Assembly: GCA_018062965.1 (NCBI GenBank)
Contig: JAGORG010000005.1
Location: 604 to 64,603 of the forward strand
Direction: 5' to 3'
DNA: 64,000 nucleotides
Source of the DNA: Minisyncoccota bacterium
Lineage (GTDB): Bacteria > Patescibacteriota > Minisyncoccia > Phycocordibacterales > UBA5272
Below the pieces are notes generated by a model. That model saw only the letters and a program-made list of their open reading frames with translations. It made no database searches and had not been told where the DNA came from. Below are positions 1 through 39,471 of the stretch, in pieces. A program made the translations under genes and the position numbers. The first letter of the stretch is position 1, and each line of letters opens with the position of its first letter.

Positions 1-1168
1 CATTGTTAATCCCTGGAAATGGTTGCGCATGGATTTTGTCTGTAGGAGCAAGTAGTGTTGATGGGCGGATAGTTATATCAACAAGATGTGTCCTTTCGTT
101 TTTTGAAAGGTACTTTTTAGACAGTGTATATTTTTGCCCCATGCGTTTTAGTTTTTCCAGTTCAAGCTCCAGAAAATCAATAGGACAACGTTTGATGGTT
201 AAGGTCGATTTTGTTACGATTGCTGCCGAGATAAAAAACATGCTCTCAATAGGGTCTTCGCTGTTGTAGTGTTCTACTGTGCAATTGATATCTTTTTTTC
301 CATGAATAACAAGTGTTGTTGTGCCTATACCATCAATACGAACACCAAATCGTTCAAGTAAAAAGCAAACATCTTGAACTTGGTAGTTAGGTGGAGCAAA
401 CTTTATAGTTGTAGTTCCGGGTAGTTTCGCTGCTGCAAGTAGTGCGGTAATTGCCCCTGTATCAGATGATTCATACAAAGGAATGGTTGCACCTGGTTTC
501 ATCTCTATGTGTGATATATCGTACTGGTTTTCACGTGTAGTCACGTCTATACCCAAGTACTCCAAAGCATATTTATGAGAAGCGACTGTTCGCTCTCCCA
601 TTTTACATCCACCAGAGTGGGGCAAGAAAAATGAAGGTGAGTAGTGCACAAATGCCCCAGCAAATGTAAATGATCTAATCCGAGCAGCGACATCTTTGTT
701 TATCTTTTTAAGCGAAAGTTTTTTACCAGGTGTGATTTCAAGAGAGGTGTCATTATTAATCCAGCGGATTTTTACGCCAACGCTTTCAAGAAGTTCTTTG
801 TAGCGATACACCTCTTCGATATGGGGAATGCCATGAAGGACTGTTGTTCCGTTGTTGATAAGCGCCGCAACCATCATGTTAACAGCACCGTTTTTTGATG
901 TATTAGTTTCTATTGAGCCAGAGAGTTTTCTCCCGCCTTCTACTTGAAAATCAATAGTATCATTGAGAGATAGAATAGGGCGCTTTAGAACTTCGCTTAT
1001 TTTTGAAAGCTGTTCTATGGTGATGTTTTGGTTACCGCTCTCAATACGAGCTATAACGCTTTGGGTTGTTTTAAGCTCCTTTGCAAACGACTCTTGGGTT
1101 AGTCCTTCAACTTCACGAAGGTGTTTAATAAATTGACCTATCTTTTCTATCTCGGTTGATTCACTCAT
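1..1168 (-). CDS. murA: UDP-N-acetylglucosamine 1-carboxyvinyltransferase (MurA) with an N-terminal HTH-XRE domain. The ORF is continuous and runs off the window start, so the C-terminus is missing.
   Basis: Minus-strand translation from the ATG at 1166-1168 begins MSESTEIEKIGQFIKHLREVEGLTQESFAKELKTTQSVIARIESGNQNITIEQLSKISEV, which is a Cro/C1-type HTH. It continues FQVEGGRKLSGSIETNTSKNGAVNMMVAALINNGTTVLHGIPHIEEV...LPHSGGCKMGERTV, matching the MurA N-terminus and the catalytic-Cys loop (E. coli LPGGCTIGARPVD). I checked the reading frame by hand down to nt 2, and the six-frame ORF track does not list this ORF. Confidence 0.75.
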   Translation of the reverse strand, partial: MSESTEIEKIGQFIKHLREVEGLTQESFAKELKTTQSVIARIESGNQNITIEQLSKISEVLKRPILSLNDTIDFQVEGGRKLSGSIETNTSKNGAVNMMVAALINNGTTVLHGIPHIEEVYRYKELLESVGVKIRWINNDTSLEITPGKKLSLKKINKDVAARIRSFTFAGAFVHYSPSFFLPHSGGCKMGERTVASHKYALEYLGIDVTTRENQYDISHIEMKPGATIPLYESSDTGAITALLAAAKLPGTTTIKFAPPNYQVQDVCFLLERFGVRIDGIGTTTLVIHGKKDINCTVEHYNSEDPIESMFFISAAIVTKSTLTIKRCPIDFLELELEKLKRMGQKYTLSKKYLSKNERTHLVDITIRPSTLLAPTDKIHAQPFPGINN

Positions 1169-1177
1169 AAAAAATAG

Positions 1178-1195
1178 TATAGCATATGTGCTATA
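1178..1195. promoter_or_regulatory. Perfect 18-bp palindrome TATAGCAtatgTGCTATA, 10-27 nt upstream of the HTH-MurA start. It is a candidate operator for the fused HTH domain and overlaps a TGcTATACT -10-like box.
   Basis: The 7-bp inverted arms separated by 4 nt were read directly from the sequence. The position is the divergent promoter region between the murA fusion gene (-) and the membrane protein gene (+). Confidence 0.5.
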
Positions 1196-1266
1196 TAAAA
1201 ATTATGTTGATTAGTAAGAGAAATTAGCATACTTGTATACCTTCAAATGATATACTATGTGGCAGT

Positions 1267-1800
1267 ATGCAGCGCTACAAGTACACCATTTTAATGGTTA
1301 TAACGTTTATTCTTGCCTGGGCTATTGGTAGCTTTAGTGCGATTGATGAGTTTGCTTCTTCTTTTGCTACAACCAATACCATAGTCTTTACTATCATAGC
1401 AGGGGCTATGTATTCGTTTTCGTTTACGGCTGGACTCGCTGTAGTGTTATTTGCTCACGTGCCAGTCGCGGCAGAAACACATATACAACTAGCACTCATC
1501 GGAGCTTTTGGAGGGCTGCTCGCAGACTTGCTGATATTTAGATTTATCAAAGACGTGATTCTTCATGAGTTGGGTAAAAAAGCCGAGGCGTTTATCGCTC
1601 GAGAGACTCGCTCGCGCGGTCGGCGCATTATTATGCAGATTATAGGCGCGATCATTATTGCTTCTCCATTCCCAGATGAAATAGGGCTCACGTTTATGGG
1701 CTTGTCTCATATCACCTTTTGGCGACTCGTTATCCTCACTTATGTCTTGGATGCTATAGGTATTTATATTCTTATTTCTGCAGTTACAAGTTTTGTGTAG
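1267..1800 (+). CDS. Small polytopic membrane protein of unknown function
   Basis: The 177-aa ORF has several hydrophobic segments (ILMVITFILAWAIGSF, LAVVLFAHVPVAA, IIGAIIIASPF, LVILTYVLDAIGIYILI). I recognised no motif. Confidence 0.45.
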   Translation: MQRYKYTILMVITFILAWAIGSFSAIDEFASSFATTNTIVFTIIAGAMYSFSFTAGLAVVLFAHVPVAAETHIQLALIGAFGGLLADLLIFRFIKDVILHELGKKAEAFIARETRSRGRRIIMQIIGAIIIASPFPDEIGLTFMGLSHITFWRLVILTYVLDAIGIYILISAVTSFV

Positions 1801-10592: not shown

Positions 10593-10657
10593 GTGAGTCA
10601 GTATATAGATTTGAATCTGTGTCTGCAAATTTTGCGTTCGTTTGATACACTGTGTGC

Positions 10658-37425: not shown

Positions 37426-39471
37426 ATGTCAAGTAAACACGAAGGAACTTTTAACATCAAAGGGTTTATCCCAGCAGGTGATCAGCCAAAAGCAATCGCC
37501 GGTCTTGTTGATGGCATCAAACAAGGTATGTCTCGGCAGACTCTTCTTGGTGCAACAGGAACTGGTAAGACGTTTACTATGGCAAACGTGATACAGCAGA
37601 TACAAAAACCGACACTTGTTATTGCCCACAATAAGACACTTGCCGCTCAGCTTGCCCAAGAGTTTCGTACATTTTTCCCAGATGCTGCGGTGCATTACTT
37701 TGTGTCGTATTACGACTATTACCAGCCAGAGGCGTACATGCCTGTGACAGATACCTATATAGAAAAAGACGCACAGATAAACGAAGAAATCGATCGTCTT
37801 CGTCACGCTTCAACTCAAGCTCTCCTAACTCGCAAGGATACAATCATTATTGCATCTGTGTCATGTATCTATGGTCTTGGTTCTCCAAAGGACTATGAAC
37901 GTGAAAACATGCGACTTACAGTTGGTGATCCTGCAACTAAAGTTGACCTCATGCAAAAGTTTGTAAATATTTATTACGAACGTACAAACGCTGACCTATC
38001 TCCTGGAACATTTCGTGCACTTGGAAATCGTATTGATATCATGCCTATTTCGGAAACAGTGATGCTTCAAATAGAAATAGCTGCTGGTAAAATAAGTCAT
38101 CTACAAATTGTAGACCCAGTATCTATGCGAGTTATGAAAGAAGTTGCTGACTACTTTATCTTTCCTGCAAAGCACTTTATTTCTGACGTTCCTACTCGAG
38201 AGCGCGCCGTGCAAACTATACAAGCAGAACTTGAAGAAAGACTAAAAGAGCTCGATAAGGATGGAAAAATTCTTGAAGCAGAGCGTCTGAAGCGCCGAAC
38301 ACGATATGATGTTGCGATGATTAAAGAAGTTGGCTTTTGTCAGGGTGTCGAAAACTATTCTCGACATCTTTCTGGAAAACAACCAGGAGAAGCACCTGAC
38401 ACATTGCTTGAATATTTTCCTCACGATAAAGATGGGAACCCAGATTTTCTTACTATTATTGATGAATCTCATGTGACACTTCCGCAGCTACACGGTATGT
38501 ATGCGGGGGATCAGTCACGAAAAAATACACTTGTTGAGTTTGGTTTTCGTTTGCCATCTGCAAAAGATAACCGACCATTACGCTATGAAGAGTTTGAAAA
38601 ACGTATTGGGCAGGTGGTGTATGTCTCTGCAACTCCTGGTGCATACGAGCGTACAGAGTCAGCGCAAATCGTTGAACAGATTATTCGCCCAACTGGACTT
38701 CTTGATCCAGTTCTTGATGTTCGCAAAGTACAAGAGTCTGGTGCGTATAAAGGGCAAGTACATGATTTTATCGCAGAAGCTGCAAAAGATATCAAATCAG
38801 GTGGACGTGTTTTGGCAACCACACTCACAAAGAAAATGGCGGAAAACCTTTCTGAATATCTCAAAGAACAAGGCATGAAAGCAGAGTATCTCCACAGTGA
38901 TATCAAAACCATGGAACGTATTCAGATTTTGACTAGATTTAGAAAAGGTGAATTTAATTGTCTTGTTGGAGTTAACTTGCTTCGTGAAGGTTTGGATTTG
39001 CCAGAAGTAACGCTCATTGGTATCTTAGATGCTGACAAAGAGGGATTCCTTCGATCTGAAACATCGCTCATCCAAACAATCGGTCGTGCCGCGCGTAACG
39101 CTCGTGGGCGCGTGATTCTCTATGCAGATGTTATGACAGGGTCACTTGAACGTGCTATAGCAGAAACAAATCGCCGCCGAACTATTCAGGAAACATACAA
39201 TACAAAGCACGGTATCACTCCGACAACTATCGAGAAAAATATCAAAGATATTACCGAGGAGTTACAAAGCACACATGCAAAAGCGGTGAATGAAGAATTA
39301 CGAATCGATCAGAAGTTATTTGCAAAAAATCCAGACAAGCTGCTACGTCTCAAAGAAAAGCAAATGAAAGAAGCGGTTAAGGTTCTCGATTTTGAAACAG
39401 CTGCTATTTTGCGTGATGAACTTGAAGTTTTGCGTAACAAAGTCGCTGACAAATCTGACACACCACTCTAA
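37426..39471 (+). CDS. uvrB: Excinuclease ABC subunit B
   Basis: Walker A GATGTGKTFTMANVI, helicase motifs, and the C-terminal UvrB/UvrC interaction domain. The extended -10 TGcTATAAT lies at 37404-37412. Confidence 0.95.
   Translation: MSSKHEGTFNIKGFIPAGDQPKAIAGLVDGIKQGMSRQTLLGATGTGKTFTMANVIQQIQKPTLVIAHNKTLAAQLAQEFRTFFPDAAVHYFVSYYDYYQPEAYMPVTDTYIEKDAQINEEIDRLRHASTQALLTRKDTIIIASVSCIYGLGSPKDYERENMRLTVGDPATKVDLMQKFVNIYYERTNADLSPGTFRALGNRIDIMPISETVMLQIEIAAGKISHLQIVDPVSMRVMKEVADYFIFPAKHFISDVPTRERAVQTIQAELEERLKELDKDGKILEAERLKRRTRYDVAMIKEVGFCQGVENYSRHLSGKQPGEAPDTLLEYFPHDKDGNPDFLTIIDESHVTLPQLHGMYAGDQSRKNTLVEFGFRLPSAKDNRPLRYEEFEKRIGQVVYVSATPGAYERTESAQIVEQIIRPTGLLDPVLDVRKVQESGAYKGQVHDFIAEAAKDIKSGGRVLATTLTKKMAENLSEYLKEQGMKAEYLHSDIKTMERIQILTRFRKGEFNCLVGVNLLREGLDLPEVTLIGILDADKEGFLRSETSLIQTIGRAARNARGRVILYADVMTGSLERAIAETNRRRTIQETYNTKHGITPTTIEKNIKDITEELQSTHAKAVNEELRIDQKLFAKNPDKLLRLKEKQMKEAVKVLDFETAAILRDELEVLRNKVADKSDTPL

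Follow-up and report, generated by a model that had tools for sequence, protein, structure and literature searches.

The subject of this analysis is a gene at the left edge of a 64,000-nt stretch of DNA from a Minisyncoccota bacterium (assembly GCA_018062965.1, contig JAGORG010000005.1, positions 604 to 64,603), referred to below as the window. The gene, here called HTH-murA (2..1168, minus strand), codes for a MurA-type enolpyruvyl transferase preceded by a helix-turn-helix (HTH) domain of the XRE/Cro-C1 type. It starts with an ATG (reverse complement of 1166-1168), from which 389 codons remain open up to the window edge; the 5′ end is complete and the 3′ end lies beyond the edge. The HTH domain corresponds to residues 14-65 (974..1129, minus strand) and is recognized by Pfam HTH_3 (E = 3.7e-11; PF01381, 43.3 bits with a cut-off of 23) and also by HTH_19 and HTH_31 (PF12844 and PF13560, above their own cut-offs). 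The recognition-helix segment T35-Q36-S-V-I-A-R-I-E43 is encoded at 1040..1066 (minus strand). The MurA domain, supported by Pfam, NCBIfam, and structure alignment, begins at residue 76 and extends to residue 389 in the window (2..943, minus strand), with Pfam EPSP_synthase matching residues 76-379 (E = 1.6e-29). A linker of only about 5-10 residues, devoid of a stop codon, connects the two domains in one reading frame. The initial annotation had reported just this in-frame arrangement and had also noted that the MurA part runs off the window, and both statements proved correct. A full-length homologue (P0001, 506 aa, 96% identical) supplies what is missing: relatives have 504-506 residues, and hence about 117 residues of an expected 506 or so lie beyond the edge.

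The C-terminal part was compared with characterized MurA proteins. With the NCBIfam models, the window fragment scores 188 and 178 bits for MurA versus 49 bits for aroA, and the full-length P0001 scores 297.6 and 282 bits versus 68 bits. The AlphaFold2 (AF2) model of P0001 (mean confidence, pLDDT, 85.7) shows four N-terminal helices (residues 6-20, 25-31, 36-43, and 51-61), a low-confidence linker, and the MurA fold, a two-domain inside-out alpha/beta barrel. By Foldseek, this model superimposes on solved MurA structures with template modelling (TM) scores of 0.86-0.92, and the top 43 matches are all MurA chains or MurA-containing models (E about 1e-34, TMt 0.83-0.92); none of the solved MurA structures that were compared carries an HTH domain. 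Catalytic residues were mapped in the numbering of E. coli MurA, with the sequence verified against PDB entry 1UAE. The family retains K22, N23, R91, C115, R120, H125, D305, R331, R371, and R397, which are invariant across 55 aligned family members. In the numbering of the fused protein, K22, N23, R91, C115, R120, D305, R371, and R397 correspond to K92, N93, R165, C188, R193, D390, R458, and R484, with the codon for the catalytic Cys188 at 605-607 (minus strand). Because the catalytic residues are kept, the window protein is not simply a pseudoenzyme, and the sequence makes it likely that the fused protein has enolpyruvyl transferase activity. Neither a second murA nor a murB was found in the 64-kb window.

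An inverted repeat, TATAGCACATATGCTATA (1178..1195), is located 10-27 nt upstream of the HTH-murA ATG. On the coding strand, it consists of the arms TATAGCA and TGCTATA separated by CATA, and we consider it a predicted operator. It had initially been described as a perfect 18-bp palindrome that overlaps the -10 box. The position and the overlap are as described, while the symmetry is not quite perfect: the two 7-nt arms (1178-1184 and 1189-1195) are 100% complementary, but the central CATA is not self-complementary, which leaves 8 symmetric base pairs out of 9. From centre to centre, the half-sites are spaced by 11 bp. The promoter-proximal (right) arm is part of an extended -10 element, TGcTATACT (TGCTATACT, 1184-1176, minus strand), whose hexamer TATACT (1181-1176) ends 7 nt before the ATG. 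Because of this short distance, and because no Shine-Dalgarno sequence precedes the ATG, the mRNA is predicted to be leaderless.

A leaderless promoter fits this genome, since Shine-Dalgarno motifs are rare and -10 boxes 7-10 nt before an ATG are common. A motif of the former type was found at only 8 of the 46 long open reading frames (ORFs) of the window. Many first genes carry TAtACT or TGnTAnACT, with -10-like boxes ending 7-10 nt before the ATG (e.g., starts at 10657, 14563, 25440, 27839, 28542, 31421, 41205, 41844, 50796, and 63183). Leaderless or near-leaderless transcription thus seems to be the norm in this genome from the candidate phyla radiation (CPR), as judged from its sequence. 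The predicted operator covers the -10 element and the spacer, and therefore sits where a repressor site would be expected. Allowing up to two mismatches, the motif has a single promoter copy in the window. The only other matches in the 64 kb, at 1741-1758 and 37578-37595, have two mismatches each and are both within coding sequence, as expected by chance; thus, no regulon is visible within the window.

The conservation of the palindrome was analysed in 156 related loci for which at least 60 nt of upstream DNA were available. The pattern TATA[T/G]CA-NNNN-TG[A/C]TATA was searched within 170 nt upstream of HTH-murA, allowing up to two mismatches, and was detected in 146 of these loci, compared to 42 other matches in 1.28 Mb. 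In 93 of the 146, the site starts at -26 to -29. Left free in the search pattern, the central 4 nt nevertheless have an information content of 1.2-1.9 bits ([T/C]AT[A/G]), while the flanks have 0.1-0.5 bits. For the 14 positions that define the pattern, counting sites is partly circular, but this applies neither to the four central positions nor to the positional clustering. The surrounding upstream DNA is otherwise unalignable among the relatives, many of which have a perfect palindrome of 18-22 bp (e.g., TATATCATATATGATATA). The site is absent at L075, where murA lacks the HTH domain, and also at L049, L074, L076, and L078, where the recognition helices have diverged (e.g., DKTQVIAIEEGKE, SISEVTKIENGES); the latter four presumably use another operator.

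A second recurrent match to the pattern, about 1.4-1.6 kb upstream of murA (L023:2411-2428), was rejected as a candidate site. It is located inside a conserved gene for a 112-aa TfoX_N protein, where it encodes the peptide EYIMYDIF, and recurs in 11 relatives (L023, L007, L011, L012, L014, L015, L018, L019, L027, L028, and L041). The match is probably coincidental, due to the coding sequence, and neither an operator nor a regulon member.

The operator sequence correlates with the protein sequence. Residue 35, which directly precedes the recognition helix (this starts at Q36 in the model), is a threonine in the window protein. Proteins with the residues T-T-Q go with G and C at operator positions 5 and 14, respectively (TATAGCA/TGCTATA), while proteins with T-S-Q or S-A-Q have T and A at these positions (TATATCA/TGATATA). 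The G/C operator is associated with 24 of 24 TTQ proteins, compared to 3 of 122 others (Fisher p = 1.5e-24, phylogeny ignored). By parsimony on a neighbour-joining tree computed from the MurA domain alone, there were about nine independent switches, a count that depends on this tree, and every TTQ clade of the tree has the G:C operator. Recognition by the sigma factor does not explain the covariation, because the covarying base is the unspecified "n" of TGnTATAAT. The comparative evidence is thus strong that the HTH domain would bind the palindrome in a sequence-specific manner. A further covariation, between G[E/D]QN in the protein and C at operator position 4 (TATCTC/GAGATA), was seen among the first 80 loci; it was dropped because many GEQN proteins from the metagenome set have TATATC.

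In many relatives, the palindrome is shared with a second gene of the pathway. At 38 loci (L050-L068, L079, L080, and a subset of L097-L160), murB, identified by Pfam MurB_C and FAD_binding_4, is divergently oriented upstream of HTH-murA, as seen in the region from -60 to 0 before this gene. The murB ATG is 8 nt away from the far edge of the palindrome (CAT-ATTGCAAT-palindrome, for example with TATATCATATATGATATA), and the palindrome stays next to murB even where the murA ATG is 90-170 nt away. At these loci, the half-sites resemble back-to-back extended -10 elements of two leaderless genes, these promoters being predictions. At other loci, the gene upstream is NRAMP-like and co-directional (27 loci) or is mreB (9 loci).

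The fusion proved to be widespread. More than 5,000 homologues were retrieved from a database, and the best 120 of these are 73-96% identical, have 504-535 residues, and all show the HTH plus EPSP_synthase architecture that had been suggested for checking. Those among the best 120 that are named are annotated as "UDP-N-acetylglucosamine 1-carboxyvinyltransferase" from Candidatus Paceibacterota. A scan restricted to one genome per species yielded 80 loci from metagenome-assembled genomes (MAGs) of Nomurabacteria, Paceibacterota, Parcubacteria, and Kaiserbacteria, of which 79 encode the fused form. A metagenome scan contributed another 80 loci. In a library clustered at 50% identity, fused forms were found down to about 29-49% identity.

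Some MurA proteins of the same clade are devoid of the HTH domain, including P0121 (63% identity) and the protein encoded at L075 (L075:3991-5337, Nomurabacteria ELA599). The latter has a TGATATAAT box upstream while the left half-site is absent. Further HTH-less members among the representative proteins are P0123, P0124, P0128, P0138, and P0144. All of these HTH-less proteins are natural controls for the fusion. One MAG, CAYWEW01, contains two different fused HTH-murA genes (L017 and L022), and a palindrome of its own accompanies each of them; the two may be true paralogs, or the bin may be mixed.

Some rare, more distant fused proteins have retained the DNA-binding part and have lost the active site. 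In P0129, P0131, P0135, and P0271 (the latter encoded at L081), the helix TSQSA[V/I]AR[I/M]EKGEQN is kept, while C115, R120, R91, and R371 are lost. The four loci of degenerate paralogs (L081:1603-3138, L161:4001-5530, L162:4001-5503, and L164:3498-5003) are all located in mur clusters. In each, the degenerate gene is divergent from an operon in which an unfused murA, its GGC..G.R loop intact, is accompanied by murB or a Mur ligase gene; this operon is directly adjacent at three of the four loci, and two genes intervene in L164. Genes for Ddl or Mur ligases are found downstream of the degenerate paralogs. Their short intergenic regions contain a palindrome of the same type, placed between a TTGAC(A/T) -35 element and the -10 element. 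Proteins related to them are annotated as MurA in the databases, but these paralogs are probably regulators only, judging from their sequences. They provide independent sequence support for a role of the HTH-MurA architecture in regulating mur transcription, and they suggest a path from an enzyme that is also a repressor to a pure regulator.

A protein of 1204 residues (P0168) has a MurA-like domain at residues 755-1198 that lacks K22/N23 and the Cys-loop motifs, preceded by an N-terminal part of about 750 residues that resembles an NTPase or a protein of the STAND type. Here, too, the MurA fold may have been put to use as a sensor.

Taken with the layout of the locus, these comparisons make it likely, in our view, that HTH-MurA is a bifunctional enzyme and autorepressor (a "trigger enzyme"), namely a MurA of the Paceibacteria type joined to an XRE HTH domain that acts on its own operator. 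The C-terminal domain would catalyse enolpyruvyl transfer to UDP-N-acetylglucosamine (UDP-GlcNAc), the first committed step of peptidoglycan synthesis. The N-terminal domain would recognize the 18-bp site TATA[G/T]CA-N4-TG[C/A]TATA, with two HTH domains of a putative dimer placed on two half-sites whose centres are one helical turn (11 bp) apart. Since the extended -10 element from which HTH-murA would be transcribed forms the promoter-proximal half-site, RNA polymerase would be kept out whenever the operator is occupied, and MurA would act as a repressor of its own synthesis. The initial annotation had recognized the layout of an autoregulated XRE repressor; this gains support from the presence of the site at 146 of 156 loci, from its covariation with the recognition helix, and from its loss together with the HTH domain. 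HTH-MurA thus probably controls its own production, a conclusion that we draw from comparative sequence data.

Where murB is divergent or a murA-murB operon is present, the layout suggests that the other half-site serves as the -10 element of that gene. One bound dimer could then switch off both committed steps, resulting in negative feedback on peptidoglycan synthesis. It may be speculated that DNA binding depends on the catalytic or ligand state of MurA, by analogy with BirA and PutA, which would couple transcription to precursor flux. A candidate for the signal is the closed UDP-N-acetylmuramic acid (UDP-MurNAc)/phosphoenolpyruvate (PEP)-adduct state, which is seen in several MurA crystal structures; the operator would then report on the open apo form versus this closed form. 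A more far-reaching version, which we put forward tentatively and regard as possible rather than probable, applies to Paceibacteria/Parcubacteria in general: MurA itself would be the transcription factor, the state of the enzyme would be read at an 18-bp bidirectional leaderless murA/murB promoter, and gene duplication would have given rise to pseudoenzymes that regulate mur clusters.

Several observations weigh against the proposal of a bifunctional enzyme and autorepressor. With respect to the promoter, a sigma-70 consensus scan of 1050-1350 revealed no -35/-10 pair and no -35 element; because of this, the promoter call rests on the extended -10 element and on the genome-wide habit of TAtACT-N7-10-ATG. 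With respect to the palindrome, perfect 7-nt inverted repeats with 0-8 nt between the arms occur 110 times in the 64 kb. When the 98-nt intergenic region was shuffled, 12.7% of the shuffles held such a 7-nt repeat and 3.6% reached a symmetry of 8/9. On its own, the repeat in the window could thus be due to chance, and its significance derives from its conservation in relatives. The inverted repeat might also function as a hairpin, for instance in RNA (for stability or attenuation) or in DNA (as a cruciform), instead of as a protein operator. The changes from G:C to T:A are compensatory within a hairpin stem as they are within an operator, and the two readings are told apart only by the link to a protein residue. 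Folding of the 51-nt region yields -9.1 kcal/mol (z-score -2.4 compared to shuffles). However, most of the repeat would not be transcribed, because it is located upstream of and within the predicted -10 element. Asymmetric variants that break the pairing (e.g., TATATCA...TGAGATA) are frequent, the stem is short and AT-rich, and an Rfam scan of the intergenic region matched no family beyond a noise-level CRISPR-repeat hit (E = 0.82). A hairpin would also leave the covariation with the protein unexplained, and we thus consider this explanation highly improbable. Hardly more plausible is a role of the HTH domain as a protein-interaction module, with the palindrome consisting merely of back-to-back extended -10 elements or being the site of another factor. 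There is precedent in RodZ, whose Cro/C1-type HTH domain binds MreB, which illustrates that an XRE-type HTH in the cell-wall machinery can serve protein contacts. Furthermore, mreB is the upstream neighbour at the nine loci mentioned above, both half-sites resemble TGnTATAAT, and they face divergent genes at the 38 murB loci. But the "n" base of the operator tracks HTH residue 35 through about nine independent switches, and the left half-site is kept at the 27 loci with a co-directional upstream gene, where a divergent promoter is not needed. In addition, the site vanishes where the HTH domain is absent or its recognition helix has diverged, and the Pfam matches are to HTH_3, HTH_19, and HTH_31 and not to a RodZ-type family. 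We consider a pure protein-interaction role very unlikely.

Other objections concern the protein. Separate genes for an XRE regulator and for MurA might have been joined by a frameshift or misassembly, and the only point in favour of this is that the window is a single sequence. An assembly error had been named initially as something that might undo the fusion. However, more than 150 independent genomes and metagenome contigs share the fusion, which therefore is not an artefact; the same ORF of 504-506 residues recurs in hundreds of independent assemblies from different projects, with a short and conserved linker of 5-10 residues. This explanation is effectively refuted, its residual probability being negligible. 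A more serious alternative, though still an unlikely one, is that the protein is only a regulator, with the MurA-like domain acting as the ligand sensor (e.g., for UDP-GlcNAc or UDP-MurNAc) of an XRE repressor and the real MurA being encoded elsewhere. Enzyme-derived sensors behind an HTH domain are common, as in ROK repressors such as NagC, and the clear pseudoenzyme versions of the HTH-MurA architecture do adjoin an unfused murA. The window clade has lost two canonical MurA residues throughout, D123 being replaced by A and D369 by A or P, with Pro-Pro inserted beside the latter and before the L-R motif. P0001 is barely above the cut-off of the MurA subfamily model NF006873 (297.6 vs. 297) and is below that of the equivalog model TIGR01072 (282.4 vs. 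392.7 bits), which indicates a divergent MurA lineage. Against a regulator-only role, the residues K22, N23, R91, C115, R120, D305, R371, and R397 are kept and are invariant in the 55 members, whereas the true pseudoenzyme paralogs have lost exactly residues that are kept here. The same clade includes stand-alone orthologues that lack the HTH domain (P0121 and L075), murB is the divergent partner at 38 loci with no other murA nearby, and no second murA is present within the 64-kb window. A final reservation concerns the predicted dimer: the monomer AF2 model shows only the four HTH helices before the short low-confidence linker. On balance, we consider an enzyme that is at the same time its own repressor to be the likely explanation.

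The gene on the other side of the palindrome in the window is not murB. The divergent neighbour (1267..1800, plus strand) is an ORF for a predicted multi-pass membrane protein of 177 residues for which no Pfam family was matched. An element of its own, TGATATACT, is present at 1248-1256, and the palindrome probably does not control this gene. The same protein is also encoded divergently from HTH-murA at L001-L003, L013, L034, and L037.

To our knowledge, neither a MurA with a DNA-binding domain nor a MurA that represses its own transcription has been described. As far as we know, the control of MurA that has been described acts after translation, through ClpCP/ReoM-dependent degradation (Firmicutes) and through UDP-MurNAc, which is tightly bound. 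The initial annotation did not know the fusion as a described arrangement, and full-text literature searches likewise yielded no description of an HTH-MurA fusion (PMC8066302 proved not to be relevant). HTH-MurA is abundant in databases but undescribed.

The closest functional parallel is BirA of E. coli, the biotin ligase and bio repressor, which also is an essential enzyme with an N-terminal HTH domain. BirA binds as a dimer to a palindromic operator over promoters that include those of the divergent bioA and bioBFCD transcription units, and the 38 murB loci mirror this bioO layout. In both cases, enzyme and repressor are one polypeptide, so that the state of the pathway feeds straight back on transcription; this applies to HTH-MurA as a prediction. 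The two systems are not homologous, as a winged HTH domain with a biotin ligase contrasts with an XRE HTH domain with an EPSP-synthase fold, and the pathways differ. For BirA, the corepressor biotinoyl-AMP is known, while the effector and the dimerization of HTH-MurA are putative. PutA and NadR also combine a catalytic and a DNA-binding domain in one polypeptide without being homologous to HTH-MurA. A feature shared with BirA, PutA, and NadR is the placement of the operator in the protein's own or its pathway's promoter (here a predicted promoter, in 38 relatives also that of murB, and next to the pseudoenzyme paralogs that of murA-murB operons). PutA has a ribbon-helix-helix domain, and its switch depends on redox state and on membrane binding; the genes under NadR control are not those for its own catalytic steps, and neither is involved in cell-wall synthesis or belongs to the XRE family.

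With the canonical MurA proteins of E. coli and E. cloacae (1UAE, 3SWD), HTH-MurA shares the fold, the catalytic loop GGC(x)(x)G(x)R, and the key residues. It differs from them by a sequence identity of about 25-30%, by the replacement of D123 and D369, by the Pro-Pro insertion, and by the 70-residue N-terminal HTH region. Among XRE repressors (434, lambda, SinR, HipB), it resembles the typical case in having an HTH_3 domain whose recognition helix begins with the usual Q and a short palindromic operator over the -10 element with half-sites one helical turn apart. The transcript is probably leaderless and autoregulated, as is that of lambda cI from PRM. In contrast to these repressors, the partner is a complete enzyme of 430 residues instead of a small dimerization or peptidase domain, and the usual fifth HTH helix is not seen in the AF2 model. 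The ROK repressors NagC and Mlc, in which an HTH domain is joined to a sugar-kinase-like sensor for an amino-sugar metabolite, are a good analogue of the degenerate paralogs, although the sensor fold is a different one.

Gene regulation in CPR bacteria (Patescibacteria) is almost unstudied, as these organisms are mostly uncultured and have very few recognizable regulators. The locus offers a complete predicted circuit for this group, consisting of a regulator, its operator, a promoter, and target genes. This circuit can be tested without growing the organism, and it comes with a prediction on specificity, by which T35 pairs with G:C and S35 with T:A. For annotation, the results imply that many database entries named "UDP-N-acetylglucosamine 1-carboxyvinyltransferase" hide an HTH-MurA architecture and that some of these proteins probably are not enzymes. 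The dead paralogs beside an unfused murA would trace a route from a bifunctional enzyme to a pure regulator. If the proposed autorepression is true, the first committed step of cell-wall synthesis would join the short list of pathways in which an enzyme is its own repressor (BirA, PutA, NadR), and MurA would be controlled in a way unlike the proteolytic and allosteric modes of model bacteria. The more far-reaching version, if true, would give CPR bacteria their first described transcriptional circuit for the synthesis of cell-wall precursors and would represent a new class of trigger enzymes.

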